64,000 bases of DNA, from positions 525 through 64,524 of the forward strand of contig CAYRIU010000046.1 in NCBI GenBank assembly GCA_964424615.1, in the 5' to 3' direction. Of the stretch, positions 9,791 to 57,143 are shown piece after piece. This stretch comes from an uncultured Gammaproteobacteria bacterium. Its GTDB lineage: Bacteria > Patescibacteriota > Patescibacteriia > UBA1558 > GWA2-36-10. Made by a program: the position numbers and the translations under genes. Below the pieces are notes generated by a model, which saw only the letters and a program-made list of their open reading frames with translations, was not told the origin of the DNA and did no database searches. The first letter of the stretch is position 1. Every line of letters begins with the position of its first letter.

Positions 9791-9946
9791 AATTAATGTG
9801 ATATAAATTATCTTAATAATATTGTTTTTTTAGTGTATTGTAAAGTCAAATACTATACTTTATAATAACAAAGAGGATCAAAGCCCTTAGTTGTCTATAA
9901 ACTACCGAGCAAGTCGTCCATGTTCTACACAACCCAAGGAGAAAAA

Positions 9947-10129
9947 ATGCTACTGCGCATCACCACCCACAGCGATTTGCCTGTGTGCTACTTTCACAAC
10001 AACCGTGTCTATCAATACTATCTCAAGAAGGGCACTTATCTGTGCCGCAAAATCGTCCATCCTTTTGGAGGTGGATTCGATGACTTGATCGTGCTATACA
10101 AGATCCGTCTGCTAGCGACCCTGCACTAG
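9947..10129 (+). CDS. Hypothetical 60-aa protein in the GC-rich island.
   Basis: AAGGAG SD 6 nt upstream of the ATG at 9947; GC-rich codons; no recognisable family. Confidence 0.35.
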   Translation: MLLRITTHSDLPVCYFHNNRVYQYYLKKGTYLCRKIVHPFGGGFDDLIVLYKIRLLATLH

Positions 10130-10499
10130 CACCTGATGCTTTGATTGGCCTCAGCCACTCAGCATTGATGACGCATGCCCATCGCTACAGCCAGTTTCCC
10201 GACCAAACCGTTCACATCGAAGAAGTTGCTGATACTCTGATCGCAGAAGTTCTGCTTGCAGCGAGCTCGACAGCTGCGACCAAGCCAATCGGCAAAGTCA
10301 TCCCTATGCCTCTCAGGTCCACACCCAGATTCGCACAAGCCGGAAAAAGTATTCGCTACCAAATCAAAACCACCCAGGTGTCGACTAGACACCGCGTCCA
10401 GAGATTTCACCCAGCTGCCCGTCGAGCTTGCTGAGAAATATCAGTAGGCAAACTTCTCCTTGACCATGGCCACCGAGACTCACATCGGTGGCCCTTTCT

Positions 10500-10540
10500 T
10501 TTTCAAAAAAAGGAGACCATCCGTAGACGATCTCCTAAAA
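10500..10540 (-). terminator. Rho-independent terminator for the island gene at 10572..10946.
   Basis: Minus-strand reading GGAGATCGTCTACGGATGGTCTCC followed by TTTTTTT. Confidence 0.5.
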
Positions 10541-10571
10541 ACCAAGTTACCAAGCGAACTGATACCCTGTC

Positions 10572-10946
10572 CTAAGCTGTCTTAGCCACCAGCTCGGCAA
10601 TTGCCTGTCTAGCCACACCCTCCTTGGGCTCGATCCAAACTATGTCGCTCAGTGGCAATACCTTGAAGGTATCGTGACAACAGACGGCGATGGAGCCCCG
10701 GAATCCAGCGGCCTGCAAGGCTGCCAAAAATTTCTCACCAGTATTTGGCAAGAACCCAAAGCCACCGCCCAAGACAACCCAGTTGGGATTGATGCTGACA
10801 ATCCCGTCAACCAGAGAATCAAAATGCAGACTAAACTGCATCACCAAAAGGTGACACGGCATGACTGCTGGGTCTCCCACCTGGAGCAAAGACCGCATGT
10901 GCCTAGGATCTTTATCCAAGACAACCACGGTAGAACGAGTAGCCAT
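10572..10946 (-). CDS. Hypothetical 124-aa protein in the GC-rich island (MATRSTVVVLDKDPRH...).
   Basis: Perfect GGAGG SD 5 nt upstream of the ATG at 10946. The track ORF is longer only through a TTG start. A minus-strand terminator hairpin (GGAGA...TCTCC plus T7) follows at 10500-10540. Confidence 0.5.
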   Translation of the reverse strand: MATRSTVVVLDKDPRHMRSLLQVGDPAVMPCHLLVMQFSLHFDSLVDGIVSINPNWVVLGGGFGFLPNTGEKFLAALQAAGFRGSIAVCCHDTFKVLPLSDIVWIEPKEGVARQAIAELVAKTA

Positions 10947-11076
10947 TGGAACCTCCTGTGACAACAACTCAAACAGGTGACTCACACACTTGATAACTTG
11001 CGAAGGGAACAAAACAGACAATTATTCTAATAAAATAAATCCTGAAAGTCAATAGAAAAACAGCTTAAAAGCTGTC

Positions 11077-11142
11077 TTGGTGCCGAAGGGGAGATTTGCC
11101 ACCGCCCGCGGGCGGGGTCCCGCTCGTGGCGGGAAACTCCCC
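11077..11142 (-). repeat. Partial copy of the tRNA-Leu 3-prime end (T-arm plus CTTCGGCACCA) with a GC-rich double-hairpin element inserted in the T-loop.
   Basis: Reads GGGGAG-TT[TCCCGCCACGAGCGGGACCCCGCCCGCGGGCGGTGG]CAAATCTCCCCTTCGGCACCA, compared with the intact GGAGGTTCAAATCCTCTCTTCGGCACCA 15 nt upstream. Confidence 0.7.
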
Positions 11143-11153
11143 AAAATTATTAT

Positions 11154-11240
11154 TGGTGCCGAAGAGAGGATTTGAACCTCCACAGCCTCACGGCTACACG
11201 GCTCTGAACCGTGCGTGTCTACCAATTTCACCACTTCGGC
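11154..11240 (-). tRNA. tRNA-Leu (anticodon CAG), long variable arm; CCA encoded.
   Basis: Hand-folded: acceptor GCCGAAG/CTTCGGC, anticodon loop TTCAGAG, T-arm GGAGGTTCAAATCCTCT. Confidence 0.75.
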
Positions 11241-11357
11241 TAGTCTAAAATCTATATCATATTATTATATTTATGCCTTGCTGTCCATATAGCATCAAAT
11301 AAAAATAGCTCCATTTTTTGGAGCTATTATTTTAAACTAGTTGTACAAAAATTATAA

Positions 11358-13355: not shown

Positions 13356-13362
13356 TCAAAAG

Positions 13363-14114: not shown

Positions 14115-14231
14115 ACGGGTGGCGGGCAATCCCGCAACGCGGGACGATCTCTTGCTTGGCCCCGCCACGCGGGGTACCAACTGCCACCGCCACGGGCGGG
14201 GTCCCGCCAACGGCGGGAAACTATACCCGCC
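14115..14231 (-). pseudogene. Degenerate tRNA-Gly copy carrying three GC-rich hairpin insertions (one double-hairpin element in the D-loop plus two single hairpins). The anticodon arm and T-arm are lost.
   Basis: Minus-strand reading GGCGGGTATAGTT[TCCCGCCGTTGGCGGGACCCCGCCCGTGGCGGTGG]CAGTTGGTA[CCCCGCGTGGCGGGGC]CAAGCAAGAGATC[GTCCCGCGTTGCGGGAT]TGCCCGCCACC, compared with the intact tRNA-Gly 30 nt away. Confidence 0.7.
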
Positions 14232-14238
14232 TCAAAAA

Positions 14239-16827
14239 TCACGCTGCTTTGACGGTAATTTTTTTATTTGAATGTGCGCTAATATCAAAATCATATTTTT
14301 TGTAAAACAAACGCTTGCCAATCTCGATAAACATAAAATAAACAAAGACAATCAAGAAAATCGCCAAGACCATATATAGAGGTGGACGACCAAATTGGAA
14401 ATACTCACCTATCGCTGTGTATGGTATGATCCAGCCCAAAGCTACGCAAGTAAAAGTACTAAACAACAAATATTTACTAGGCCTACTCTGAATAAATGGT
14501 AATTTTTTGGTCCTGATAAAATGAATCACCAAAGTCTGAGTAGCTATAGACTCCATGAACCAACCCGCCTGAAACACTGACTGACTAGCATGAAAAACAC
14601 TATACAAAATATAAAAGGTTGTAAAGTCAAACAAGGAGCTAATCGGTCCAATCCACAACATAAAACGCTTGATAAACTGCATATTCCAACGCCTGGGTTT
14701 TTGTAGCCAATCCAGGTCAACATTGTCAGTCGGTATAGTCACCTGAGAAAAGTCATAAATAAAATTATTAAGCAAAATCTGTATAGGCAACATCGGCAAA
14801 AACGGTATAAAAAATACTACCAAAGTCATGCTGACCATATTGCCAAAATTTGAACTCAGACCCATCATGACATACTTCATGGTGTTGCCAAAAGATTTTC
14901 TACCTTCTAGCAAGCCCTCTTTCAAAATTTCCAAATTTTTGTGAGTCAAGACGATATCCGCTGACTCTTTGGCTACATCGACAGCATTGTCTACCGAGAT
15001 CCCAACGTCAGCTGCCTTGAGCGAAGGAGCGTCATTGATACCATCACCCAAGTAGCCCACCACATGACCATTGGCTCGCAGAGCATTGATCACTCTATTT
15101 TTTTGCTCCGGTGAAAAACGAGCAAAAATAGTAGTCTTCTCTACCATCACTGCCAAAGCATCATCAGTCAGATGCTCTACTTCGCTACCCATGATAGTAC
15201 CTTGGATCACCAAGCCGACTTCACGACAAATTTTGTTAGCCACTAGCTCATTGTCTCCGGTGATGACCTTCACTCGCACACCGACATTTCTCAAGTCTTC
15301 CAAAACTTGCTTTAAGCCTTTGCGTGGTGGATCAAGAAAAGCCACAAAACCACAAAGCTCTAGATCATTTTCATCCTGCTTGGTGTAGGATCTTTTTTTA
15401 CCAACAATTTTCTTGGTAGCGACAGCCAAAACACGATAGCCATCCCTACTCAAGCTCTCATAATACTCATGTGCTTTTTTGTGCCAAACTTTTCCAAATT
15501 TGGAAATCTTTTTGCCCTGTCTGAAGGTCTGACATTTTTTGAAGATCTCCTCTGGAGCACCCTTGGTGATCAACACTCTACCCTCTGCTCCCTCGACTAC
15601 GATACTCATCAAACGCCTGTTAAAATCAAATGGTATTTCGTCAATTTTTTTGTAGTGAGTGAGGGATATTTTTTTGAAATTAATAATAGCTGCGTCTAAG
15701 GGATTTTTTACACCAGTCTGAAAAAATCCATTGAGATAAGTATATTTGAAAACCTGCTCGTCATTTTCTCCTAGCAAGTTTGTATAGGTGACCAAAACTA
15801 TCTTGTCCTCGGTCAGTGTACCGGTCTTATCCGTACACAAAATATCCATACTACCAAAATTTGGAATGGCGGCTAATTTTTTGACTATCACTCCTTTTTT
15901 GGACATGCGTAGAGAGCCACGAGCCATAGTGATAGACATGATCATGGGTAGCAGCTCTGGCGTCACACCGACAGCCACTGCAATAGCAAACATAAAAGAA
16001 TCCAGAATCTGATGATTGATAAGAGAGTTAAATAAAAATATAAAAAGTACTAAAAAGAAGATTATCTTCATCACAAAATAACCAAAACGTGAAACACCAA
16101 TTTCAAATTCACTTTTTTCTTCTTTTTTGACTAGCTTGTTGGCTATCTGACCAAATTGAGTTTGGTTGCCAATCTTCAAAACTACAGCCGTAGCCGAACC
16201 GCTGACTACACTGGTGCCGGCAAATATAATATTACTCAAATCCACCAAAGGTATATCTTGGCCACGCAAACGCTTGGTATCTTTGGCATTGGGATATGAC
16301 TCACCAGTGAGAGCAGATTGATTGACATAAAAATCTTTGGCTTCGATAATGCGTGCATCAGCTGGCACTAGATTGCCGGCACTGATACTGATGACATCTC
16401 CTACACAAATACGAGAAGCTTTTACTTCTTTTTTCTGACCATCGCGTATGACTGTGGCCATAGTGCGAACTTTTTCTTTGAGGCGCTTGGCCGCTTGGCC
16501 AGCATTACGCTCTTCAAAAAAATCCAAAACCACACTCAAGAGTACCATGATAAATACAATGATAGCATTGCGCATCTCCCCAAAATAAGCAGAAATAGCG
16601 GTCACTATCAATAATATGATCACTAGAGGACTTTTGAAATATGAGAGAAATTCCAATACTACATTGAGCTCCTTTTTTTCTTCTATAGTATTGTAGCCAC
16701 AGATAGCGTGTCTTTTTTGAGCCGAACTATCTGATAAACCTTTGGCACTACTTTCTAATAATGAAAAAATATCGGCTATATCAAGCGTAGCAAAATATTC
16801 TAGCTTTTTATCTAATATATCTTTCAT
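14239..16827 (-). CDS. mgtA: Mg2+-importing P-type ATPase (MgtA-type). Start taken at the internal Met, because the track's 28-aa N-terminal extension overlaps the tRNA-Ile fragment.
   Basis: DKTGTLT phosphorylation motif, TGDN, GDGINDAPSLKAADVGI, 10 TM segments. Confidence 0.85.
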   Translation of the reverse strand: MKDILDKKLEYFATLDIADIFSLLESSAKGLSDSSAQKRHAICGYNTIEEKKELNVVLEFLSYFKSPLVIILLIVTAISAYFGEMRNAIIVFIMVLLSVVLDFFEERNAGQAAKRLKEKVRTMATVIRDGQKKEVKASRICVGDVISISAGNLVPADARIIEAKDFYVNQSALTGESYPNAKDTKRLRGQDIPLVDLSNIIFAGTSVVSGSATAVVLKIGNQTQFGQIANKLVKKEEKSEFEIGVSRFGYFVMKIIFFLVLFIFLFNSLINHQILDSFMFAIAVAVGVTPELLPMIMSITMARGSLRMSKKGVIVKKLAAIPNFGSMDILCTDKTGTLTEDKIVLVTYTNLLGENDEQVFKYTYLNGFFQTGVKNPLDAAIINFKKISLTHYKKIDEIPFDFNRRLMSIVVEGAEGRVLITKGAPEEIFKKCQTFRQGKKISKFGKVWHKKAHEYYESLSRDGYRVLAVATKKIVGKKRSYTKQDENDLELCGFVAFLDPPRKGLKQVLEDLRNVGVRVKVITGDNELVANKICREVGLVIQGTIMGSEVEHLTDDALAVMVEKTTIFARFSPEQKNRVINALRANGHVVGYLGDGINDAPSLKAADVGISVDNAVDVAKESADIVLTHKNLEILKEGLLEGRKSFGNTMKYVMMGLSSNFGNMVSMTLVVFFIPFLPMLPIQILLNNFIYDFSQVTIPTDNVDLDWLQKPRRWNMQFIKRFMLWIGPISSLFDFTTFYILYSVFHASQSVFQAGWFMESIATQTLVIHFIRTKKLPFIQSRPSKYLLFSTFTCVALGWIIPYTAIGEYFQFGRPPLYMVLAIFLIVFVYFMFIEIGKRLFYKKYDFDISAHSNKKITVKAA

Positions 16828-16901
16828 AACTAAAATAATTTTAGCATATTTCAGCAAAACAAAAAAACTGCCGAAGCAGTCTTGTTCTCTACTCAATGAA
16901 A

Positions 16902-16978
16902 TGGTGGGCATAGATTTTTGATACTTGCCACCGCGTAGCGGGGTCCCGCTCTGCGGGAAACCATCGACCCCGACTTTA
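16902..16978 (-). pseudogene. Degenerate 3-prime-half copy of tRNA-Ile (anticodon loop to CCA) with a GC-rich double-hairpin element replacing the T-loop.
   Basis: Minus-strand reading TAAAGTCGGGGTCGATGG-TT[TCCCGCAGAGCGGGACCCCGCTACGCGGTGG]CAAGTATCAAAAATCTATGCCCACCA, compared with the intact ...GTCGGGGTCGATGGTTCAAGTCCATCTATGCCCACCA. Confidence 0.7.
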
Positions 16979-17025
16979 CCTGCCCGCCGAACTAAGCACC
17001 TAAATCATATTATAAGATAAAAGTA

Positions 17026-17102
17026 TGGTGGGCATAGATGGACTTGAACCATCGACCCCGACTTTATAAGAGTCGTGCTCTAACCGACTGAGCTATATGC
17101 CC
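17026..17102 (-). tRNA. tRNA with anticodon UAU, probably tRNA-Ile reading AUA; CCA encoded.
   Basis: Hand-folded: acceptor GGGCATA/TATGCCC, anticodon loop CTTATAA, T-arm GATGGTTCAAGTCCATC. Confidence 0.6.
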
Positions 17103-20693: not shown

Positions 20694-20751
20694 TACCCCC
20701 CTCTTTTTCTCCCCCTAAATTAGGGGGAGATGTCCGCTAAGGACAGTGGGG
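20694..20751 (+). repeat. 58-nt palindrome-containing dispersed repeat (copy A): TACCCCCCTCTTTTTCTCCCCCTAAATTAGGGGGAGATGTCCGCTAAGGACAGTGGGG.
   Basis: About 90% identical to the reverse complement of 33812-33868. Internal palindrome CCCCCTAAATTAGGGGG and complementary termini CCCCCTCT/AGAGGGGG. Confidence 0.75.
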
Positions 20752-20758
20752 ATAATAA

Positions 20759-20790
20759 AAAAACACTCCAGGAAATTGTAGTGTTTTTTT
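20759..20790 (+). terminator. Rho-independent terminator after rbfA (AAACACTCCAGG...TAGTGTTTTTTT).
   Basis: Hairpin plus T7. A near-identical terminator is at 21158-21187. Confidence 0.55.
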
Positions 20791-20884
20791 CTTGAAATTA
20801 ATATGCTTGACAATTGATGCTTATTTGTTTAGGATTATTTTGTTTTCCTGGCACTAGATAATCTTGACTCAAGGAGGACACACC

Positions 20885-21073
20885 GTGAACAAAAAAAAGA
20901 GACAACGCCCACGGCGTAAACATCTTGGCCGAGTGTCACCTGGCAAGCGAGCCATCAAGTTGGCGAGACGCTTAGCTAAGCGTCAATTGGCAAATGAGAA
21001 GTTGGCCAACACCATGACCACCAGACGACGCGCGGAAGCCTACCTCAAAACCCGCGATGACGGGTTTGCGTAG
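20885..21073 (+). CDS. Hypothetical small, highly basic (K/R-rich) 62-aa protein in a GC-rich mini-cassette. GTG start 6 nt after an AAGGAGGA SD.
   Basis: Canonical SD at 20871-20878. Bounded by terminators on both sides. The composition is much more GC-rich than its neighbours. Confidence 0.45.
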   Translation: MNKKKRQRPRRKHLGRVSPGKRAIKLARRLAKRQLANEKLANTMTTRRRAEAYLKTRDDGFA

Positions 21074-21098
21074 CCCTATCGGCGTCACATAGACGCTT

Positions 21099-21146
21099 TC
21101 TGCCTCTTCAAGATACCTCCAATGGTACTATAGAGGCAGATTTTTT
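21099..21146 (+). terminator. Rho-independent terminator (CTGCCTCT...AGAGGCAG plus T7).
   Basis: 10-bp stem followed by ATTTTTTT. Confidence 0.5.
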
Positions 21147-21157
21147 TCTAAAAAATT

Positions 21158-21187
21158 ATTAGTCAAAAAACACCCCAGAAAATTGGA
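21158..21187 (+). terminator. Rho-independent terminator, near-duplicate of 20759-20790.
   Basis: AACACCCCAGAAAATTGGAGTGTTTTTTT. Confidence 0.5.
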
Positions 21188-21238
21188 GTGTTTTTTTGAT
21201 TTAAAAAATATGCAGGGATTAATACATAGATAAAATAT

Positions 21239-23077
21239 TTATGATTGTAATTTTATTTCAATTTGTTCCACTAATTTTTTCAACGATGGGAAATTTTCTT
21301 CAAAGGCACTTTTACTTGGAGAAAAATCGTCTGATATTTTATTTTTAAATTTTTCTATAATTATTTCATTAAATTTATTTTCTTTCTTTAGAAAAATTTT
21401 TATTTGCTCAATAAATGGAGCATCTGTTAACATTATCACACAGTCATCTAAAAACTCCTCTTTATAAAATTCTTTGAATTTGCTTTCTACAAAATCTTTT
21501 TCTAATAAATCTTCTATAGTACCTTCGTTCTTAAAGCTAGCTACTAAATCTCTAATGGTAAAAACAGAATTTTTATCATAAACGCCGGCAATTTTTAGAA
21601 TTTTATCCCTATATCCTTTTCCCTCCAAATCATCGTCAGTTACTACTAAAATTTTTATATCATCATAATTAAATTTAGTAGCAATTTGAACAATATTACT
21701 ACCAATTCCATTAGTAATACCGAATTGCAATCCTTTTAAATGCAATGATTTTTGTAATATTATTTTATCAGACTGCCCCTCAACAAGAATCCTGTGTGGT
21801 ATCAACAAATCTTTATAAACATTTATGCCAAATGCCAACTCCAATACTTCGTCATCCCTAAGATCCTCTTCACTTCTTATTTCTTTTTTTTCGGTTATTG
21901 CCGCATTATTTTTTCTAATAATTATATTTCTTTCTTTGGTTTTTTGATCTACTAAAAATGGGGAATGAGTAGAAATAAATACATAATTATCTTTACCTAT
22001 ACTTAATAACTGCTCTTTTAAATCCCTAATACCCGATGGATGTAGATGTGCCTCTGGTTCGTCGATGATAATTAGTTTATCTTTTTTCCTAAACTTTTCA
22101 GTTTCTATAGATAAGGACAAAATTAAAGACATAAACTGTTTGAAACCCTCACTTCTTACATTCATTTTATAAAAATTATGTTCATTTTTTTTACCATCAT
22201 CTACTATTGAGACATTACATTTCTTACTATCCGTTATTTCTATATCGATTTTAATTTTATGTTTCCATTTATTATTGATGTATTTTGTAGCCTCATCTGA
22301 CAGTGTTGTGCTCAGTTTTCTTCTTAAATTAAAATCCGAAGTACTGTCTATTTCTTTTTTTATCTTATCTTCCGTGTCATACCCAGCTAAAGCAAAAATG
22401 TTTTTAAGTGGTTTATTTTTATTTACATCTGCTTTAAATTCTTCTAAATTAACCTCCGTAATTAAATATTCGTCAGATGGCTTCCAAAAAGATGTCTGTG
22501 GTTCATACTTCTGAATTATGTCAATAATTTTATTTTCAAAATATTCTTTAAACACATCTTTTGTAAACTCTACATATGTATTCTGAATATCATTAAATTT
22601 ACTAACCTCATAAGACTTACTATTTATATTTTGACCATCAACATTATTAGTTATTAATTCTTTAATAAATATATTCTCCGTTATTTCCTCTATATTGAAA
22701 GTATATTCTACTTCAAAATGGTTTGCTCCTTCCTGCAAATACACATGCTTAACAATACTATTAATTTTAAAATTAAAAATTTTATCATTTAATATTTCTT
22801 TTTTTATTAAACTAGAATATGTTTCTACTTGTTCAAAACTTAAATAAAACCATAAATCAATGGGTTTTTTCTGTTCATCTTTTTGATTATGCATGTCATT
22901 ATAATCAAATTCTTCGTTAGGAACATTAAAAAAAGACATAGCCTGTAAAATATTACTTTTACCAGACTCATTAATTCCTAAAAACATGGTAGTATAACTA
23001 TTACCGTATTTCTTTACATCAAACTCAATATGTTGAATTGATTTAAAATTCTCAATAATAATTTTTGTAATCTTCAT
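21239..23077 (-). CDS. OLD-family ATP-dependent endonuclease, class 1 (N-terminal ABC-type ATPase fused to a C-terminal TOPRIM domain). Candidate anti-phage defence gene.
   Basis: Walker A GINESGKSN; ABC signature-like SEGFKQF; Walker B/H-loop LIIIDEPEAHLHP. TOPRIM motifs RILVEGQSDKIIL and VVTDDDLEGK. 612 aa. Extremely AT-rich coding sequence. Confidence 0.75.
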   Translation of the reverse strand: MKITKIIIENFKSIQHIEFDVKKYGNSYTTMFLGINESGKSNILQAMSFFNVPNEEFDYNDMHNQKDEQKKPIDLWFYLSFEQVETYSSLIKKEILNDKIFNFKINSIVKHVYLQEGANHFEVEYTFNIEEITENIFIKELITNNVDGQNINSKSYEVSKFNDIQNTYVEFTKDVFKEYFENKIIDIIQKYEPQTSFWKPSDEYLITEVNLEEFKADVNKNKPLKNIFALAGYDTEDKIKKEIDSTSDFNLRRKLSTTLSDEATKYINNKWKHKIKIDIEITDSKKCNVSIVDDGKKNEHNFYKMNVRSEGFKQFMSLILSLSIETEKFRKKDKLIIIDEPEAHLHPSGIRDLKEQLLSIGKDNYVFISTHSPFLVDQKTKERNIIIRKNNAAITEKKEIRSEEDLRDDEVLELAFGINVYKDLLIPHRILVEGQSDKIILQKSLHLKGLQFGITNGIGSNIVQIATKFNYDDIKILVVTDDDLEGKGYRDKILKIAGVYDKNSVFTIRDLVASFKNEGTIEDLLEKDFVESKFKEFYKEEFLDDCVIMLTDAPFIEQIKIFLKKENKFNEIIIEKFKNKISDDFSPSKSAFEENFPSLKKLVEQIEIKLQS

Positions 23078-23270
23078 AATTTTATTAATTTATTACGCGT
23101 GGTGCCCTATGCCCACATCTTAAAAAGACAACATGCTTTGATTTATAAAATAATCGCTATCAAATAAAAAATAAGCAAAGCCGTATTCCCAACTAACAAT
23201 GTATCTTTATACCTACTGCCATCTTACTCCCAATACAAAAAAAGACAATATATGACGTAAATAGTATATA

Positions 23271-23421
23271 GGACGAAAGACGCCGAATGTTTCTATCGTC
23301 ATTGCGAGCGAACGCAGTGAGCGCGGCAATCTACCAACTTATAGATTGCTTCGTCTCCGCCATCCGCCCACTGGCGGAGGCGGATCCTCGCAATGACGGT
23401 AAATAGACTAGGCGTCTTTCC
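23271..23421. repeat. About 150-nt nested inverted-repeat structure. Outer stem GGACGAAAGACGCC/GGCGTCTTTCC, inner stem CGTCATTGCGAG/CTCGCAATGACG, and an embedded GC palindrome CTCCGCCATCCGCCCACTGGCGGAGGCGGAT. Candidate structured RNA or complex MITE.
   Basis: The stems were found by eye. The embedded palindrome is one mismatch different from the element inserted in the tRNA-Ala pseudo-copy (13311-13340). Confidence 0.5.
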
Positions 23422-25116: not shown

Positions 25117-25379
25117 CCACAACAAAGAGATTATTCACTTTTGAAATTATTTGTGCTATTATTTTTCACAAGGTGAGTTTTGAGGATCAAAACATCCTCA
25201 TTTCTAAATTCTCATCCCTAAGACCATCGGTGTATAGCACCATTCATAGCCGAAAGACTTTGGACAATGCTATGCTTAAGCCGATGGTCTTTGTTTTGAA
25301 ATAAAAAAAGAGCGGCGCCTCCTACACCGAAGTGTAATGGATGGCGCCGCTTCTGGTCAGCCAGTAGCAGTGTGTGCTA

Positions 25380-25940
25380 CTAGCTGATCAACTTGCGCTT
25401 GGCGATGATGTTGTGTTCACCGCGAAACTCGAAGACCACTGCCTCCAGAATGTCCAGGGTATGGACATCGCGAAGACCGCAGAGATACGCGGCCAGAATG
25501 ATGAAGGAGCTGTGAAAGACACCAACTCCCATCTCGCCGTCCTCCATGCAGGAGAACATCTGGTGAATGGCCCCCATGGCCTCGACTTCGAAGACGTGCT
25601 GTGCATCGCAGTCGTGAGAAGCCGTGAAAGCCTCCATGACCGAAACGCCGCCAGCGATCAGATCTTCGAACTTCTCGTTGTGCAAGTGCATCAGGGCAGC
25701 ATCGCTACCCAAGCCATCGATCACGGGATGACGACAGCTCTGCGAGAAGGCCGGATTCTCGACCACCATGACCGCAGCTGTCTCGATAGTCGCCACCAGA
25801 GGCGACGTGAAAATGTGCTGCACCATCTGGTTGCGATGATGGAAGGCTCCAAAGCCATGAGCCATATCCAGGCCCATGGTGGAAATGTGCCGACCGTCCT
25901 CAGCCAGCTCGGAGTGAACGTGCAGAGTCAAGATTTTCAC
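25380..25940 (-). CDS. Hypothetical His-rich (putative metal-binding) 186-aa protein in a GC-rich cassette. GTG start with a GGAGGA SD.
   Basis: SD 5 nt upstream of the GTG start. A minus-strand terminator (AGCGGCGCC...GGCGCCGCT plus T-run) lies at 25306-25360. The overlapping plus-strand ORF 25374..25985 is judged an artefact of the high GC content. Confidence 0.45.
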   Translation of the reverse strand: MKILTLHVHSELAEDGRHISTMGLDMAHGFGAFHHRNQMVQHIFTSPLVATIETAAVMVVENPAFSQSCRHPVIDGLGSDAALMHLHNEKFEDLIAGGVSVMEAFTASHDCDAQHVFEVEAMGAIHQMFSCMEDGEMGVGVFHSSFIILAAYLCGLRDVHTLDILEAVVFEFRGEHNIIAKRKLIS

Positions 25941-26069
25941 AGAAATCCTCCGTGTTTACTGTCCATGCCCACCCTAGATTACTAGGGATCCAAGTCGTCA
26001 ATGACTCAGAATTGAGTATTATATGACATTTATGCTATTTTGTCAATACTAGAATTCAAACTCCCTTGA

Positions 26070-33800: not shown

Positions 33801-33811
33801 ATTGTTTTGTA

Positions 33812-39697: not shown

Positions 39698-39710
39698 TTA
39701 CATGGTGTAA
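39698..39710 (+). promoter_or_regulatory. Palindromic operator-like site TTACATGGTGTAA upstream of peptide a. A paralogous site TTACACAATGTAA lies at 39957-39969 upstream of peptide b.
   Basis: TTACA-N3-TGTAA inverted repeats. Each is followed about 15 nt later by a conserved 20-nt leader GAGTCAGACCAAGT(A/G)CGAGG. Confidence 0.45.
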
Positions 39711-39747
39711 GAGCAAAGAAGCGAGTCAGACCAAGTACGAGGAAGAA

Positions 39748-39915
39748 ATGAAGAACATTCTCAAGGCTTCATTCCTGACCATTGGATATGTCGTGATGAG
39801 CGTCCTGACCGGAATCAAGAACGACAGCCCCATCGTCCTTGTTTTCATAGGGTCGCTAATTTTCTTTGAGGTGCGGGCGCTTCACGACAAACTCGAGCGC
39901 TTGCCCAAGAACTAG
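39748..39915 (+). CDS. Small membrane peptide a (55 aa; MKNILKASFLTIGYVVMSVLTGIKNDSPIVLVFIGSLIFFEVRALHDKLERLPKN).
   Basis: First of three tandem GC-rich cassettes with a shared leader; hydrophobic core and charged tail. Confidence 0.5.
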   Translation: MKNILKASFLTIGYVVMSVLTGIKNDSPIVLVFIGSLIFFEVRALHDKLERLPKN

Positions 39916-40007
39916 CCAGATCCTTCGCCGAGCCTAACAACTCAACTCCAATTTTCTTACACAATGTAAGGATAAAGGAGTGAGTCAGACCAAGTGCGAG
40001 GGTAAAA

Positions 40008-40094
40008 ATGTCGTGGTCAGACGTCGCCTGTCTCATCGTCGGCATCATGCTGGGGATCATCACGAGAATCATTCGGACGCGCCCCAGGGACTAA
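40008..40094 (+). CDS. Small membrane peptide b (28 aa; MSWSDVACLIVGIMLGIITRIIRTRPRD).
   Basis: Single TM helix plus Arg-rich C-terminus. Preceded by an operator-like IR and the conserved leader. Type I toxin-like architecture. Confidence 0.5.
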   Translation: MSWSDVACLIVGIMLGIITRIIRTRPRD

Positions 40095-40161
40095 CCCTTT
40101 CCTTCGCCGCTATTCGCGAGTAACCAGCCAGCTCACCGACCAACAAAAGTGCGAGAGAGCA

Positions 40162-40260
40162 ATGTCGCTGACAGATTTCATCTGTCTCCTCTGCGGGACA
40201 GTTCTGGGGTTCGTCATTGGCCACACACTCAAGAACCGCCGCAAGAACCGCCGGAGGTAA
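40162..40260 (+). CDS. Small membrane peptide c (32 aa; MSLTDFICLLCGTVLGFVIGHTLKNRRKNRRR).
   Basis: Single TM helix plus poly-basic tail. Leader AAGTGCGAGAGAG is related to the a and b leaders. Confidence 0.5.
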   Translation: MSLTDFICLLCGTVLGFVIGHTLKNRRKNRRR

Positions 40261-40297
40261 CAACCTCGCTCGTCCATTGCGCACACCTGGCGCATCA

Positions 40298-40345
40298 GAC
40301 CTCGGTAGCATCACACATATGTGAGTGCCGAGGTCTTTTTCTTTT
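40298..40345 (+). terminator. Rho-independent terminator closing the peptide array (GACCTCGG...CCGAGGTC plus TTTTTCTTTTT).
   Basis: 8-bp GC stem plus T-run. Confidence 0.6.
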
Positions 40346-40396
40346 TGTCAAAAACTCTAGCTACATTTTTGTGTCGTTTTATGATAATATGTATGT

Positions 40397-41215
40397 ATGG
40401 AAAAAAATTCTTTAGCTAAATACAAATTATATTTAAAAAGTAAAGACTTGAAGCCCAGCACCATCAAAAATTATAGCTGGCATGTGGGGCAATTTTTGCT
40501 ATGGTCTGAAAATAAGTCCGCCAGAGGCGGGTCCGCCTCTGGCGGAAAAATAACCGCTCCCCTTTTAAAAAAATATAAAGAATTTTTACTAGCCAAACAA
40601 AAAAATATTGGTAGTATCAATCTACGCCTTATCATCATAAATAACTACCTACACTTTATTGGTATCAGATACTCTTTTGAGCTCCTGACTGAGCACAAAG
40701 ATAGACTAGCTGCTCTCACACCTTTGCAATTACAAAATTTTTTGGACCAACCCTTGAAAAAAAATAACCCTGTTGGTCACAGAGACAAAGCTTTATTAGA
40801 AATTTTATATGCTAGCGGTCTCAAGGTCAGCGACCTAGTCAATCTCCAAAAAAACCAAGTTGATTTTTTGAGTCGCGAAATAATACTAGACAAAAAACAC
40901 ATTACTCTACCACCCTATGCTCTGCACTATCTAGAAAAATATATTAATTTCAGAAAAGATAAAAGTCCTTGGCTATTTATAAACTTTGATCGCAGTAAAA
41001 AAGCTGGCGAAAAACCACTTTCTGTCCGCTCAGTCGAAAGAATGGTAGAAAAATATGCCTTGGCACTACGACCAAGACTAAAAATCACTCCCCAAATACT
41101 GCGCAACACCCTAGCCTACAATCTCAAAAGCCAAGGCGTGACTGGCTCTGGACTCAAAGAAGCTCTACACTTCAAAACAAAAGTAGGCGCCGGTAATTAT
41201 CTAAACAGATTATAA
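40397..41215 (+). CDS. Tyrosine site-specific recombinase (XerC/XerD/integrase family), with a GC-palindrome-encoded insertion SARGGSASGG in the N-terminal domain.
   Basis: Core-binding-like N-terminus; GLKVSDLVNLQ patch; C-terminal R...LRNT...H...Y arrangement. 272 aa. Confidence 0.65.
   Translation: MEKNSLAKYKLYLKSKDLKPSTIKNYSWHVGQFLLWSENKSARGGSASGGKITAPLLKKYKEFLLAKQKNIGSINLRLIIINNYLHFIGIRYSFELLTEHKDRLAALTPLQLQNFLDQPLKKNNPVGHRDKALLEILYASGLKVSDLVNLQKNQVDFLSREIILDKKHITLPPYALHYLEKYINFRKDKSPWLFINFDRSKKAGEKPLSVRSVERMVEKYALALRPRLKITPQILRNTLAYNLKSQGVTGSGLKEALHFKTKVGAGNYLNRL
40517..40546 (+). repeat. Perfect 14-bp-stem GC palindrome (TCCGCCAGAGGCGG-GT-CCGCCTCTGGCGGA) inserted in frame within the recombinase ORF.
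   Basis: Self-complementary 30-mer of the CCGCCA-N-TGGCGG family. It encodes SARGGSASGG without breaking the frame. Confidence 0.65.
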
Positions 41216-52863: not shown

Positions 52864-52892
52864 TTGACAAAAAGCAAAAATTGGCGTTATAT
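52864..52892 (+). promoter_or_regulatory. Sigma70-like promoter (TTGACA, 17 nt, TTATAT) for the PRPP-synthetase-like gene. A GGACGCCCGTCC palindrome (52926-52937) lies between it and an AGGAGG SD.
   Basis: Hexamer match; palindrome; strong SD at 52951-52956. Confidence 0.45.
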
Positions 52893-52961
52893 ATTGACAA
52901 AGTCCGCAAAGAATCACACCACACAGGACGCCCGTCCTTCACAACTGTCTAGGAGGCAAAC

Positions 52962-54026
52962 ATGGCTAACTCCGAAGAAATCATGCTGCTCTGCGGCGGT
53001 GGTGATACTAATCACCTGGCTCAAAAAATCATCGAAGTAGTCAACAACCGACGCATCGGCCAAAGAGAACTCAAGCTCTCACACACTGACTTCGGCTGGT
53101 TTGCCGACGAAGAACCAGATCATGCCTTTGACGAATGGGACAAAATTCGTAACAAGCATATCGTTTTGTTCTTGAGCACACACAGCCCAGAACTAGCCAT
53201 GGAGCTCTTGATCCTCATCCGAGCGATCAAAAAAAGATACGGTGCCAAGAGCCTGACCGTGGTCCAGCCCTTCATGGCTTTCCGACGCCAAGACCACCCA
53301 GAGATCAAAGAAGAGTTTGACATGAACCTCTGGTTCATTGAGAACTTGAAAGCCAATGGCGCTGACCGTGTCATACTCTGCGACATTCACTCCGAGCAGA
53401 CGCTAAAAAACTGCGTTGAAGTCGGCCTAGAAGCTCACCACGTCAAACCTACTCCACTCTACGCTGCTGCCCTGAAAGAACCAATTGCTCAGGCCAAGGA
53501 GCTCGGTAAGCATACCAAGATCCTGTCGCCAGACAAGGGTTCTCTACTTCGTGCTATTGCTCTAGCCAAGATCCTCAGTGTGCCGGTGTTGCTATCTCTC
53601 AAAAAAAGAAGCGAGACCGGCAACATTGTCACCAATGTCCCACCGACACCGTCCGATCTCGAGCTGATCGCAGCTATGGAGCAAAAGCACGGTATCAAGA
53701 TCGAGCTCATGAGTGAAGAAATGGTCCGAGATGCCCACATCATCATCCGTGAGGATGAGCTCGACACTGGCGGCACCGCAGCTGACACCTGTCGTGATCT
53801 GCTCCGTGCTGGAGCCTACCAAGGCATCTTGGTCGTGACACACATGAAGTGCTCTCCAGGCTGGAAACGCAAGGTCGGTCGTCGCCGGACCAGTCCTTTC
53901 ACTAGAGTAATTGCCGGTGATACCATCAATCGCTCTTACGAAGACCAGACCGGTGGTCTGGTGGTCAATGTCAGTGTGGCACCAGTCATTGCCGAGAAGT
54001 TGACCGAAATCCTAGACGCCCTGTGA
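52962..54026 (+). CDS. Divergent ribose-phosphate pyrophosphokinase (PRPP synthetase, Prs) family protein in a GC-rich cassette.
   Basis: DIHSEQ matches Prs DLHAEQ. REDELDTGGT matches VDDMIDTGGT. LAQKI is the N-terminal motif. About 50% GC, strong SD, own terminator. Confidence 0.55.
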   Translation: MANSEEIMLLCGGGDTNHLAQKIIEVVNNRRIGQRELKLSHTDFGWFADEEPDHAFDEWDKIRNKHIVLFLSTHSPELAMELLILIRAIKKRYGAKSLTVVQPFMAFRRQDHPEIKEEFDMNLWFIENLKANGADRVILCDIHSEQTLKNCVEVGLEAHHVKPTPLYAAALKEPIAQAKELGKHTKILSPDKGSLLRAIALAKILSVPVLLSLKKRSETGNIVTNVPPTPSDLELIAAMEQKHGIKIELMSEEMVRDAHIIIREDELDTGGTAADTCRDLLRAGAYQGILVVTHMKCSPGWKRKVGRRRTSPFTRVIAGDTINRSYEDQTGGLVVNVSVAPVIAEKLTEILDAL

Positions 54027-54037
54027 TCCACTAGGAC

Positions 54038-54070
54038 CACAAAACAAAACCCCCAGCGAGTCTGCTCGCT
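54038..54070 (+). terminator. Intrinsic terminator (CCCCCAGCGAGTCTGCTCGCTGGGGG plus TTTTA).
   Basis: 11-bp GC stem. Confidence 0.6.
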
Positions 54071-54099
54071 GGGGGTTTTAAATATATAAAACTAAAAAA

Positions 54100-55029
54100 C
54101 TACAACCACTTCTTTTTATAAAAAATAAACAAAAATAGTATGACAGCAATAAAAGATATAACCAACACATAAACAAAAGCTAGCGGATGTGTAGCCAGTG
54201 GCAATGTGACATTCATACCAAACAAACTAGCCACAATAGTAGGTATAGTCATAATAATAGTAAAGGCTGTCAAAAATTGGATGGTCCTATTTAGTTTATT
54301 GGTAAACAAAATCTGATATGAATCACGCAAGCTTTTGATGCTCTTTAAATTTACTTGGCAAATTTCTGTTGATTGCCTGATACTGATGATCATGTCGTTT
54401 AATAGATCGTTGTCATCTTCTTCTAGCTTGAAATAGTTGCCAGTCACCATACCCTCAAAAACATTGCGTACTGGTATCAGGGCCGACATATATTGATTGA
54501 GTAAATCCTCATATCTAATCAGTTCATTGATATCATCATCCGTGACCGATTCTATCTTTTTCTTTTGGGAGGCAACTAGGTTATTCACTTCACGCACCCT
54601 AGAGCTAAATCTCTGAGAAATCTTCAAAAAAATGTGAATCAACAATTTGGCTTTTTGGCTAGTAGCAATAGCTAGACTATTTTTCAAAATATCTTTGATC
54701 ACCTTGTCCTCAAAAAGAGCCAAACTAATAAAATATTTTTCTGTGACGATAAAAGTCAATGGTGTAGTATGAATCAAATCTTTGGCATTGATCTGCTCAC
54801 GAGGAATACGTATAAAAAATAACAGCGTTTTTTCTTGTCTCTCTATACGTGGCAACTCGTGCAAGTCCAAAACATCTTGTAAATCTAACAAATCTAGATC
54901 TGACATCTTGGCTAGTTTCTCCAAATCATCATGCTCTAGATGACTAGCATTGATCCAAACATTATCTTGAATCTGATCAAAATTTTCTATGCGATTACTT
55001 TCCTGATCTTTGAAATAGATATTTAACAT
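54100..55029 (-). CDS. corA: CorA-family Mg2+/Co2+ transporter.
   Basis: C-terminal two TM with the GMN motif (LFGMNVTLP). Confidence 0.85.
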   Translation of the reverse strand: MLNIYFKDQESNRIENFDQIQDNVWINASHLEHDDLEKLAKMSDLDLLDLQDVLDLHELPRIERQEKTLLFFIRIPREQINAKDLIHTTPLTFIVTEKYFISLALFEDKVIKDILKNSLAIATSQKAKLLIHIFLKISQRFSSRVREVNNLVASQKKKIESVTDDDINELIRYEDLLNQYMSALIPVRNVFEGMVTGNYFKLEEDDNDLLNDMIISIRQSTEICQVNLKSIKSLRDSYQILFTNKLNRTIQFLTAFTIIMTIPTIVASLFGMNVTLPLATHPLAFVYVLVISFIAVILFLFIFYKKKWL

Positions 55030-55066
55030 AGCTATATTATAACAAAAATTATACTATAATGATATC

Positions 55067-56578
55067 TCAAAATTTAAAAATAGTTTGCTCTCTATCTGGC
55101 CCCACAGAAATGACCTGTATCTGCCCACCAGTATACTGCTCTATAAATTCTACTATAGTCTTGATAGGCTGTGGCAAATTTTCATAATCTGCAATCTCAG
55201 AGATAGCTGATTGCCAACCAGCAAATTCTTTGTATATCGGCTCACAATGATAAAGTATTTCTGAAAAGCGTGGGAAAAAATCTATACTCTGACCAGTTTT
55301 GAGCTCTTGTCCAGCATAAAAGATATCTGGACCATTATACTTATATGCCACTGCTAATTTTATTGTGGAAAATTTATCTAATACATCTACCTTGGTCAAA
55401 GTAATACTAGGCCCATTATACTGCATAGCATACTTGAGGGCGACCAAGTCTAACCAACCATTCCTTCTGGTGCGACCAGTGGTAGCACCATACTCATCGC
55501 CCAACAAACGTACAGCTATACCTAGTTTGAACTGATCGTCGCCAACTAAATATTCCTCCACTCTACTGCCGTGTTCGACTTTTTCTTGCTCTTTGGTAAT
55601 GCCTCGAGAGCAATACTCCTCACTTATACTGCCACCAAATTCTGTAGGAAATGGTCCATTGCCAACTCTGGTCATATAAAAAGCTTTGGCAATACCAAAA
55701 ACATGATCCACATCACCCTCCCTCAAGCCAGCACCGCGAGCTAAGCCATCAATAGTACAATCTGAAGAAGTCTGAAACTTGGTAGTACCAAAGTCAATGC
55801 TAAGTAAGGTGCCTTGCGCTCCCTCTAATAAAATATTTTTGCCACTTGAAAGAGAGTCTCTTACAAAACTCTCAAGATCTATCACGTGTGGCTTGAGCCT
55901 ATTGGCAAAATCACCAGTGTACTTCTCCACTATAGCTTCCACATCCAAAACATTTTCCGGATGAAAATATATTCCTGAGCCCAAATGTGGATGCGCCAAA
56001 ACCTCCTTGGCCATATCTTTGTCCAAAGTAGCTAAAATATTTTTTTTGCTCTCTAGATACTTGGTTAATTTTTCTCTGAATATTTCTGGATTAAAAATAT
56101 CATTGAGAAATAAGGAGTGACGAGCAGTGTAGTCAGTATAGAGAGGTCCGATGCCACGACCAGTTGTGCCGATCTTTTGAACTTTGTCTCCCATGCGGTC
56201 AATCAAAATATGATATGGCAAGACCAACGGTGCTTGGTGACTTATTTTCAAATATTTGATTGATAGGCCAGCATTTTCTAAAACACCCATCTCATCTATC
56301 ACTGCCTGAGGATCAAAAGCTACGCCCCGACCAATAATATTTATCTTGCTACCACTATCATGTAAAATGCCAGATGGTAAAAGATGAAAAATATGTTTCT
56401 GACCATTGACCACTATGGTATGACCAGCATTGGCCCCACCAGTACCACGGATGATAATATCTGCCCAGGTCGATAAGAGGTCGACCAATTTACCCTTGCC
56501 CGTATCACCCCACTGATTACAGACTACTGCTACACAATGCTTATCGCTCAAAAATTTGTTCAATAAATCTTGCCGCAT
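55067..56578 (-). CDS. purA: Adenylosuccinate synthetase (long form with insertions).
   Basis: GDTGKGK P-loop, GTTGRGIGP, TKVDVLD motifs. Confidence 0.85.
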   Translation of the reverse strand: MRQDLLNKFLSDKHCVAVVCNQWGDTGKGKLVDLLSTWADIIIRGTGGANAGHTIVVNGQKHIFHLLPSGILHDSGSKINIIGRGVAFDPQAVIDEMGVLENAGLSIKYLKISHQAPLVLPYHILIDRMGDKVQKIGTTGRGIGPLYTDYTARHSLFLNDIFNPEIFREKLTKYLESKKNILATLDKDMAKEVLAHPHLGSGIYFHPENVLDVEAIVEKYTGDFANRLKPHVIDLESFVRDSLSSGKNILLEGAQGTLLSIDFGTTKFQTSSDCTIDGLARGAGLREGDVDHVFGIAKAFYMTRVGNGPFPTEFGGSISEEYCSRGITKEQEKVEHGSRVEEYLVGDDQFKLGIAVRLLGDEYGATTGRTRRNGWLDLVALKYAMQYNGPSITLTKVDVLDKFSTIKLAVAYKYNGPDIFYAGQELKTGQSIDFFPRFSEILYHCEPIYKEFAGWQSAISEIADYENLPQPIKTIVEFIEQYTGGQIQVISVGPDREQTIFKF

Positions 56579-56781
56579 AATTTTTTAGATAATAATCAAC
56601 TTAAGTAGTATAACAAAATATAAAATAAAAAACAGCTACCCAAACTAGCAATTTTATATCTCTTGGTTATTTTTATGATTTAGGCTATAATACTAAAGAT
56701 GTACAAAAAATTGCACAAAAGACATTTGTACCCTAGTCTGAATATCAGACTTTTATTTTTTCAAAAAATACTTAGTTTACC

Positions 56782-56810
56782 AATATCCCGTCATTGACGG
56801 GATATTTTTT
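56782..56810 (+). terminator. Intrinsic terminator-like hairpin (ATATCCCGTCATTGACGGGATAT plus T7) in the purA upstream region.
   Basis: Palindrome plus T-run; no obvious upstream plus-strand gene. Confidence 0.3.
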
Positions 56811-56869
56811 TAGTCTTTTTTATGAAACTCCTAAACTAGCTCACCCCCCCTACCACTGGAGGCTTAGTC

Positions 56870-57085
56870 ATGAAGCAGGTCGTTCTTTTCAAGCGTCAGG
56901 TCACCATCAAAGGATTCACTTTCCAGGCTCAGGAGGACTATAGTTTTCAAATCGTCACTCTGCAAGACACCAAGTGGCTCTATTACCAGCGTCAAAAAAT
57001 CATGACTCTCAGTCTGTTTGCGGTGCTGTTTGTAGACCAAGGACACGCTCAATGGATTGACGATGAAAAATATCGGGTAGCCTGA
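56870..57085 (+). CDS. Hypothetical 71-aa protein in a GC-rich mini-cassette (GGAGG SD, own terminator).
   Basis: SD CTGGAGGC 8 nt upstream. A terminator CCGCCCAACCCTTGGTCAAGGGTTGGGCGG follows at 57086-57125. Richer in GC than the flanks. Confidence 0.4.
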   Translation: MKQVVLFKRQVTIKGFTFQAQEDYSFQIVTLQDTKWLYYQRQKIMTLSLFAVLFVDQGHAQWIDDEKYRVA

Positions 57086-57143
57086 CAAAAACCGCCCAAC
57101 CCTTGGTCAAGGGTTGGGCGGTACCAAATGTAAAACTATTTCT

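Follow-up and report, generated by a model that had tools for sequence, protein, structure and literature searches.

Self-contained GC-rich transcription units led by Shine-Dalgarno sequences in an AT-rich Patescibacteria chromosome

We analysed a 64-kb stretch of contig CAYRIU010000046.1 (the whole stretch is hereafter called the window; mean guanine-plus-cytosine (GC) content 0.383). An initial annotation had listed six GC-rich segments in it and had read them as cassettes, acquired repeatedly from a higher-GC donor by an integron-like process or else introduced by chimeric assembly. The six segments are real, separate and mostly autonomous transcription units of a Patescibacteria chromosome (Candidate Phyla Radiation, CPR; Parcubacteria-like). 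Two units, c3 (histidine-phosphatase-like) and c5 (PRPP-synthetase family), belong to the lineage and are not fresh imports from a GC-richer organism; c1, c2 and c6 are set aside in this statement. We give about equal weight for and against a wider reading, in which the units form a clade-intrinsic class of GC-rich transcripts that depend on Shine-Dalgarno (SD) sequences, lie in recombination-prone slots and would be held by selection on expression, the putative agent. Our literature search found no earlier description of this gene class in Patescibacteria.

Composition and start regions of the units

On recomputation the six segments that had been annotated have a GC content of 0.48-0.52: 9921-11300 (0.49, including a tRNA-Leu), 20841-21180 (0.48), 25221-26040 (0.52), 39681-40400 (0.50), 52881-54100 (0.51) and 56841-57120 (0.49). 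Elsewhere in the window, tRNAs and ordinary genes, infB among them, account for the GC-rich patches. Read base by base, the six segments resolve into seven transcription units, cassette 1 being made of two convergent units (c1a and c1b; the others are c2 to c6), which occupy both strands and extend over 47 kb. The GC step is abrupt and tracks the predicted transcript from its predicted start to its terminator: GC is 0.36-0.62 in the 5' untranslated regions (UTRs), 0.45-0.56 in the open reading frames (ORFs) and 0.43-0.60 in internal non-coding stretches, against 0.17-0.28 in the promoters and 0.05-0.40 in the DNA just outside.

The same units hold the SD sequences of the window. Among the native ORFs, 0 of about 58 has a convincing SD, in agreement with what had been noticed at the outset. 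The motif GGAGG located 5-7 nt before a start codon opens an ORF five times in the window, all five inside cassettes. A canonical AGGAGG-type SD had been ascribed to every unit; this stands for these five cases, while c1a has AAGGAG and the three peptides of c4 have weaker sequences of the GAGG type (GAGG, GAGGG and GAGAG). In the start regions (-30 to +30) native genes have a mean GC of 0.24 and a minimum free energy of -5.2 kcal/mol, compared with 0.49 and -9.2 kcal/mol for the cassettes (p=0.0013). The association was also found over a larger set of 311 non-overlapping ORFs from 16 loci: strong-SD ORFs exceed the GC of their locus by 0.072 and the others by 0.001 (Mann-Whitney p=3e-7). In this set nearly all truly GC-rich ORFs are SD-led once tRNA-overlapping and antisense ORFs are discounted.

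Codon usage is likewise shifted, third-position C and G being raised in the units (C 0.37 vs 0.18 in native genes; G 0.25 vs 0.17; A 0.15 vs 0.27). Among two-fold codons ending in C or T, the share of C is 0.47-0.69 in the units, 0.67 in HU and 0.57 in IF-2, the two most codon-biased native genes, and 0.19-0.27 in ordinary genes.

Each unit had been credited with its own E. coli-like promoter. Promoter-like sites scoring 10-12 of 12 indeed lie upstream of c1a, c1b, c2, c3 and c4; that of c5 is only moderate, and the scan gave no convincing promoter for c6, the weakest case among the units. The native genes rny and nrnA likewise have 11/12 promoters, and promoters are therefore not the distinguishing mark of the cassettes. 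A hairpin is present at the 3' end of every unit. Hairpin-T terminators were found after c1a, c1b, c3 and c5 by the scan and after c2 and c4 by eye; the claim of an intrinsic terminator falls short for c6, whose hairpin has no T-run on the + strand.

Model searches returned little for most of these units. Rfam, at gathering thresholds and at E<=1, gave only the six tRNAs of the window and chance-level matches, and no riboswitch or leader in any unit. With Pfam and NCBIfam c1a, c1b, c2, c6 and the first c4 peptide had zero matches. PADLOC matched no cassette protein; its sole match is a low-GC AAA_15 gene neighbouring the cassettes.

Unit c5 in related genomes

Related contigs from independent assemblies were fetched for comparison; they are labelled L001, L002, L003, L006, L011, L016 and L017-L024. 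Unit c5 (52864-54080, + strand) starts with its promoter at about 52864-52895, followed by a leader of ~60 nt with an AGGAC/GTCCT hairpin, an AGGAGG and an ORF of 354 aa (52962-54026). It ends in a bidirectional hairpin (54045-54080) common to the convergent corA gene. A conserved structure of the leader was considered and rejected, RNAalifold giving a 5-bp hairpin only and no covariation. In the protein, Pribosyltran_N and Pribosyltran both score above their Pfam thresholds, and TIGR01251 gives 107.8 bits, slightly below its cut-off of 113. A profile search reached solved Prs structures at E=3e-21, with the RQD, D-H and DTGGT stretches aligned. The protein is thus predicted to be a divergent member of the Prs (ribose-phosphate diphosphokinase) family.

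The relatives of c5 (42-79% identity) all come from Patescibacteria or from unassigned metagenome contigs. The family comprises about 20 representative clusters. In L006 and L011 the unit is collinear with the window (sigma factor gene, c5, corA-purA), with a nucleotide identity of ~75%, equal to that of the flanks. Its GC exceeds the background by 0.08 to 0.16 in each of the eight GTDB species loci, even where amino-acid identity is as low as 42%, and GGAG is found 5-9 nt before the start in seven of the eight. When the window is compared with L006, conserved codons show 46% identity at their four-fold sites vs 30% at random, and the flanking genes give the same result; the GC of the four-fold sites is 0.55-0.68 in c5 vs about 0.3-0.45 in the flanks. 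The synonymous divergence (dS, NG86) is 1.37 in c5 vs 1.7-3.5 in the flanks, a lower value that hints at a possible constraint on synonymous sites.

Unit c3 in related genomes

Unit c3 (25303-26046, - strand) has a perfect promoter (26046-26018, TTGACA-17-TATAAT), a palindrome (25972-25987), a GGAGG, an ORF of 186 aa (25940-25380) and a terminator at about 25351-25303. Identity at codon positions 1/2/3 is 0.69/0.81/0.59. From this pattern c3 is a gene, and the alternative that it is a GC-rich RNA was ruled out by its coding substitution pattern. A word-indexed search found six clusters of relatives and an exhaustive profile search 160 representative clusters. The window protein itself matched no Pfam model. 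A relative annotated as a histidine phosphatase family protein of a Patescibacterium (P0071) matches His_Phos_1 at 24.3 bits (threshold 21.7) with the RHA motif present, and the window protein is linked to it by profile at E=5.6e-44. The family consensus retains the RHA and R-x-x-ETA motifs; the window protein has LHVHSE where RHA is expected and has lost both arginines, so that it may be a degenerate enzyme. Judged from these motifs and profiles, c3 may be a divergent or degenerate member of branch 1 of the histidine phosphatase superfamily.

In the window, L001 and L017-L019 the unit adjoins rny in divergent orientation. In L020, L022 and L024 it is found in other neighbourhoods with the same promoter and leader, adjoining genes of phosphoenolpyruvate (PEP)-utilising enzymes in L022 and L024. 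In the aligned leaders (window, L001, L017, L020, L022 and L024) the -35, the -10 and a GGAG-type SD are kept in 6/6. The palindrome CCCTAG-N4-CTAGGG is exact in the c3 leaders of the window, L001 and L017-L022 and occurs nowhere else in the window or the fetched loci; the leader of L024 has a shorter CCCTA/TAGGG palindrome. The whole design (promoter, leader palindrome, SD and terminator) recurs in distant AT-rich relatives. A distant homologue, that of L023, belongs to a 0.50-GC Patescibacterium; it has an ordinary composition and is without SD. Directly after c3, L017 carries an extra GGAG-led membrane-protein unit, and L020 and L024 a further promoter or unit.

The c3 protein is only 27-59% identical in relatives whose RNase Y and ClpP are 94-95% identical, and its ratio of non-synonymous to synonymous divergence is 0.26 vs 0.04-0.06 in the flanks. 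Identity is 27% with L001 and 59% with L017, at equal distances of the flanks (dS of rny from the window 0.75 and 0.72 respectively); the allele was therefore swapped in at least one lineage. The GC of third codon positions (GC3) is nevertheless 0.65-0.90 amid backgrounds of 0.33-0.41 GC. Four-fold identity is near random for most cross-lineage pairs (e.g. 0.29 vs 0.28 expected for window-L020), and GC3 persisting at such sites is therefore not the signature of a decaying transfer. The combination of a GC-rich body with an AT-rich promoter and leader, both conserved, is a lasting trait of the unit.

Two observations touch the surroundings of c3. Members of its family occur among multiple PEP-utilising and PPDK_N fragment genes in L022 (3870-6064), L023 (1-7261) and L024 (1995-7871), which hints at a functional link of this phosphatase family with phosphohistidine enzymes. 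Between clpP and c3 the window has a conserved intergenic element (25134-25300, + strand), 91% identical to L001 18663-18850 and also present in L017 at about 4010-4140 on the opposite strand. It has a promoter-like TTCACT-17-TATTAT with TG, then ~125 nt, two hairpins and a T-run at its end. It has no Rfam match and looks like a small RNA gene.

Variable content of the c4, c2, c6 and c1 loci

Unit c4 (39553-40348, + strand) lies between rpsO and xer. It has a promoter (39553-39581, TTGACA-17-TATTAT with TG), a leader of ~160 nt, three small peptides that are hydrophobic with a basic tail (39748-39915, 55 aa; 40008-40094, 28 aa; 40162-40260, 32 aa) and a terminator (40298-40348). The first two peptides each follow a repeated 46-nt leader (39697-39742 and 39956-40001; repeat family D16). 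The slot of L003 has the same promoter, first leader part and terminator; between them an ORF of 151 aa for a membrane protein, also GC-rich and GGAGG-led, replaces the three peptides. Unit c4 recalls type I toxin-antitoxin systems: its small hydrophobic peptides (28-55 aa) have basic tails and lie in tandem, two of them follow a duplicated structured leader, and the transcript is long and highly folded. Unlike these systems, c4 yielded no predicted promoter on the opposite strand for an antisense or divergent small RNA, and its peptides are without homology to known toxins. The tyrosine recombinase reported beside a cassette is indeed adjacent to c4 (40397-41215, 272 aa); it matches the models of XerA, XerD and XerC and none of IntI, is co-oriented with c4, and proves to be a conserved Xer-type gene found at the same place in relatives that hold a different slot content.

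Unit c2 (20753-21213, + strand) has a promoter-like sequence (20807-20835), an AAGGAGG, an ORF for a highly basic protein of 62 aa (20885-21073) and its own terminator (21100-21147). On either side it has a direct copy of a 54-nt hairpin terminator (20753-20806 and 21160-21213; repeat family D15). The unit is absent after rbfA in L001 and L002. L001 has a single copy of the flanking hairpin after rbfA and more copies between the genes of its variable region; the content of L002 at this place differs from both the window and L001. No relatives of the c2 protein were found, JGI metagenome contigs included, only near-identical copies, and no S21 model matched it. The flanking hairpin was considered as an attC-like mobile boundary and rejected, having no exact match in JGI metagenome contigs. 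Beside c2, at 21239-23077 (- strand), lies the gene of a 612-aa AAA_15/AAA_21 ATPase with a GC of 0.26, which matches the OLD, AriA and GajA defence models. It sits in a hypervariable locus downstream of rbfA, where L001 and L002 have other low-GC genes.

Unit c6 (56836-57125, + strand) consists of a GGAGG, an ORF of 71 aa (56870-57085) and a hairpin (57091-57122) that doubles as the terminator of a convergent hemerythrin gene. It is absent in L006 and its protein forms a singleton cluster.

Cassette 1 holds the convergent units c1a and c1b, a locus that is covered by no fetched relative. Unit c1a (9838-10503, + strand) has a promoter-like sequence (9838-9866, TTGTAA-17-TATAAT), a leader of ~75 nt, an AAGGAG, an ORF of 60 aa (9947-10129) and a terminator (10468-10503); its exact protein was also called in another assembly and forms a singleton cluster. 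Between the ORF and the terminator of c1a, 10130-10465 (+ strand) is a 335-nt stretch of 0.53 GC with no SD-led ORF, the only candidates being a 97-aa TTG ORF (+) and an 83-aa ORF (-); a second ORF of unconventional type and a structured 3' UTR are both conceivable. Unit c1b (10503-11052, - strand) has a promoter-like sequence (11052-11024, TTGACT-17-TAGAAT), a leader, an AGGAGG, an ORF of 124 aa (10946-10572) and a terminator (10536-10511). Among 5.8 billion proteins its protein found only its own cluster and is an orphan.

A cassette had also been said to abut a duplicated tRNA 3' end. The duplication belongs to a "shadow" of tRNA-Leu(CAG) (11154-11240) located outside cassette 1 (11078-11142, - strand; repeat families D4 and D20), in which the 3' acceptor/T-arm string of the tRNA is repeated together with a GC-rich double-hairpin insert. 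The tRNA-Leu fragment itself (11078-11098) is separated from the tRNA by 55 nt and does not mark the distal end of the cassette. Further shadows were found at 14118-14233 (Gly) and 16907-17000 (Ile), that of tRNA-Gly being conserved in L001 (8296-8410). The fragment is thus one of three recurrent tRNA shadows and not an att scar of cassette 1.

Origin of the units

By blastn the window is collinear at 12.5-28.4 kb with L001, at 37.7-44.3 kb with L003 and at 44.9-56.6 kb with L006; nucleotide identities are about 75-87%. The units join the same native neighbours in independent NCBI, JGI, ENA and Logan assemblies and are therefore no assembly artefact. Chimeric assembly with reads of a GC-richer organism has the composition shift itself in its favour, nothing more; in these independent contigs promoter, leader and terminator are continuous with the native flanks, exact proteins recur on several contigs, and we consider the chances of a chimera negligible.

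Between relatives the flanks made of promoter, leader and terminator are ~90% identical while the slot contents turn over, being replaced, hyper-divergent or strain-specific. The acquisition and turnover initially proposed are therefore correct in part: c2 and c6 are gained or lost, the content of the c4 slot is replaced and c3 is hyper-divergent. The higher-GC donor is unsupported. No homologue was found in a higher-GC genome with native composition, apart from the distant c3 homologue in the 0.50-GC Patescibacterium; the relatives of c3, like those of c5, occur only in Patescibacteria or unassigned metagenome contigs, and nearly all that were examined lie in AT-rich contexts. A recent, repeated and integron-like acquisition from such a donor, mainly of c1, c2 and c6, would agree with the atypical composition, the SD motifs, the orphan or strain-specific state of these three and the direct repeats flanking c2. 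It is contradicted for c3, c4 and c5: c5 and the c3 and c4 slots are syntenic in relatives with the same composition, an outcome that the annotation itself had named as refuting it, and this composition persists at synonymous saturation. Integron cassettes do resemble the units as small, mostly single-gene modules of variable content at fixed positions, here with a tyrosine recombinase beside one of them. However, an IntI-type integrase (divergent, with an attI) is not present, the recombinase being of the Xer type, and a window-wide repeat search found no attC-like motif that the boundaries of the units have in common; the terminator hairpins at the 3' ends are unrelated to one another, and a repeated hairpin flanks c2 alone. 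Moreover five units have their own 10-12 of 12 promoters and are dispersed, instead of forming an array that follows one shared Pc/attI. The tRNA fragment, for its part, is a recurrent shadow. The units fail every tested defining feature of integron cassettes, and we regard this origin as very improbable.

The anatomy of the units is closer to that of phage morons, defined as self-standing units of promoter, gene and terminator that deviate in GC and are inserted between conserved genes (PMC3594210). A promoter of its own precedes most units here (that of c6 was not found), all have a 3' terminator hairpin and a GC unlike that of their neighbours, and they lie between conserved genes; several are present or absent among relatives and some are in tandem. 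They could then be self-contained modules of an unsampled phage, plasmid or other Patescibacteria replicon, their GC being that of this pool, which the chromosome would sample repeatedly at a small number of intergenic hot spots. Several observations speak for such a pool: close relatives differ in which units they have or have replaced, 54-nt repeats surround c2 (a hairpin that also separates genes in the L001 variable region), units are stacked in L017, L020 and L024, and c3 is displaced together with its promoter and leader. Unlike morons, the units reside in a cellular chromosome, flanked in all cases by housekeeping genes (clpP/rny, rpsO/xerD, rbfA, sigma/corA). No viral relatives of c3 or c5 were found among 2.9 million viral contigs (IMG/VR, single proteins and profiles), and at least two unit families are conserved clade-wide with maintained composition. 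No shared boundary motif or mobility gene accompanies the units, and c5 is syntenic and diverges in step with its flanks. In addition the promoters are AT-rich and native-like, only the transcribed part being GC-rich; a pool replicon would need the same dichotomy, which leaves the composition unexplained. A mobile pool is accordingly an unlikely source in our judgement.

Still less probable is GC-biased gene conversion, in which the slots would be recombination hot spots and biased heteroduplex repair would raise both GC3 and protein change. In c3 a high GC3 does go with fast amino-acid change and with allelic replacement (27% vs 59% at equal flank distance), and the conserved flanks could anchor recombination. 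But the GC step is sharp at the transcript start and the terminator, the conserved flanks where crossovers would resolve have a GC of 0.17-0.28, c5 is GC-rich without accelerated divergence or replacement, and the link with SD is not predicted.

Horizontally acquired islets in general share with the units a sharp discontinuity of composition and codon usage and a content of orphan or lineage-restricted genes. Absence from the same locus in relatives is seen for c2 (L001 and L002) and c6 (L006), not for c5 (L006 and L011) nor for the c3 and c4 slots. In contrast to islets, the anomaly is undecayed, distant orthologues keeping it at synonymous saturation, and no donor, mobility genes or att sites were found. 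The clade-wide conservation of at least two unit families with maintained composition indicates a long residence, not a recent transfer. Atypical GC is routinely read as horizontal gene transfer (HGT); on the sequence comparisons made here this equation is demonstrably wrong for at least two units. The anomaly is confined to the transcript, tied to the only SD sites of the window and kept at randomised synonymous sites, and these genes would therefore be mislabelled wherever HGT in CPR genomes is called from composition.

Proposed explanation

If the units are a clade-intrinsic class held by selection on expression, the genome would run two styles of translation initiation side by side. In the first style, the ~58 ordinary genes would be translated from extremely AT-rich, weakly folded leaders with no SD. 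The second would use a sigma-70-type promoter, a leader of 45-160 nt, a strong SD, a GC-rich body of C/G-ending codons and a stable 3' hairpin. SD-less initiation depends on unstructured A/U-rich leaders, and SD pairing compensates for structure. GC-rich structured mRNAs would be unable to use the AT-rich SD-independent route and would then require an SD. The combination of 5' hairpin, SD, GC-rich body and 3' hairpin could give a high output and/or a long mRNA life, and selection on the transcript and its translation would keep the composition. Contents would be exchanged among relatives via homologous recombination in the conserved flanks. The genes carried in this way would be lineage-specific, accessory or housekeeping-like: a divergent Prs, a degenerate histidine phosphatase, small membrane peptides, a basic peptide and orphans.

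Selection on RNA or translation is suggested because the share of C-ending codons resembles that of HU and IF-2 and because five of six transcripts fold stably. Relative to dinucleotide shuffles the folding z-scores, which are inflated by the terminator hairpins, are -3.3 to -7.4 in these five and -1.75 in c6. This inflation weakens the argument, as does the range of the native control transcripts (+0.2 to -3.4, some being negative). Several other points tell against the explanation. For Lys, Glu and Gln the units use G-ending codons, which the highly expressed HU avoids, so native-style codon optimisation alone is insufficient. A GC3 of 0.9 is extreme for codon or mRNA selection, and c3 and c4 evolve fast, which is unusual for very highly expressed genes. 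The called start of the c5 homologue in L016 has no SD upstream. The window and the fetched loci contain no rRNA or relevant ribosomal-protein genes; in Parcubacteria the 16S anti-SD is reported to be missing from about half of the 16S genes, and bS21 to be often absent (PMC9297842). Finally, any of c1, c2 and c6 could be a real recent import, because they have no known relatives.

Pure translational codon optimisation was considered as an alternative and rejected: the C-endings fit HU and IF-2, but the excess of G-endings and the GC-rich non-coding parts do not.

The nearest parallel is that of Bacteroidia, in which translation is SD-blind and the few SD-led genes form a specially regulated set, as rpsU in Flavobacterium johnsoniae (PMC7797042, PMC9976891, PMC13000453). 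In both cases ordinary genes have A/U-rich leaders without SD and very few genes have a strong conserved SD (as counted here in the window only). In Bacteroidia the 16S anti-SD is present but sequestered by bS21, bS18 and bS6; the likeness seen here is one of mRNA leaders only. The units differ in their lineage (Patescibacteria), in being GC-rich over the whole transcript, and in their SD-led genes, which are accessory or metabolic (Prs-like, histidine-phosphatase-like, peptides, orphans) and not an autoregulated rpsU.

We put forward tentatively a stronger version, a second expression channel kept by selection. The units would be clade-wide "privileged" transcripts, GC-rich, structured and SD-led, with GC3 reaching 0.9 in a genome of 0.34 GC. 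Their translation would go via an SD-anti-SD pairing that ordinary genes leave unused, would take place only in particular ribosome states or conditions, and the mRNAs would be unusually resistant to AU-directed RNases. Such a channel might be, by analogy and again somewhat doubtfully, the rpsU principle of Bacteroidia widened to a fast-turning-over accessory regulon.

If selection on the transcript is indeed the cause, uncultured genome-reduced bacteria run two initiation regimes side by side, and they offer a natural test case for the role of SD pairing where most genes do without it. On the same premise there would be a small set of lineage-specific genes that are probably highly or conditionally expressed.

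Other features of the window

Outside the units the window carries ordinary bacterial housekeeping and transport genes. These include a split LeuRS, Nramp, a P-type ATPase, IF-2, RbfA, an NrnA-like protein, ClpP, RNase Y, YmdB, HU, PNPase, S15, the Xer recombinase, GARS, ABC and MacB transporters, sigma factors, CorA and PurA. Stop codons are TAA (41), TAG (13) and TGA (4). An alternative genetic code, envisaged for odd ORFs, was ruled out: TGA is the stop of 4 native genes and the code is therefore standard.

The leucyl-tRNA synthetase (1777-4236, - strand) is encoded by two adjacent ORFs of 557 and 258 aa with a TAG stop and 9 nt between them; this arrangement may reflect a genuinely split enzyme, a pseudogene or an error in the sequence.

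The three tRNA shadows adjoin tRNA-Leu(CAG), tRNA-Gly(CCC) and tRNA-Ile(UAU). They keep tRNA strings (acceptor, T-arm, anticodon stem), and GC-rich double hairpins, all belonging to one repeat family (CCRCGGGCGGGGTCCCGC...GGCGGGAAACT), replace or interrupt their arms. Neither ARAGORN nor Rfam called them. Between the Gly and Ile shadows the window has a gene for a P-type cation ATPase (14245-17040) of ordinary composition. L001 lacks this gene, and there ~90 bp separate the tRNA-Gly shadow from tRNA-Ile; the difference is probably an insertion or a deletion.

GC-rich intergenic palindromic repeats were found at 23270-23420 (GTCATTGCGAGCGAACGCAGTGAGCGCGGCAATC...CTCGCAATGACG) and at 20695-20755 and about 33810-33870 (CCCCCTAAATTAGGGGGAG). 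The latter element is also present in L002, and a similar one lies at 2540-2610 of L003. Lastly, an ORF of 415 aa (59286-60533) contains three tandem 282-nt repeats (59658-60400, + strand; 68-85% identity), and its orthologue in L006 has fn3 domains.

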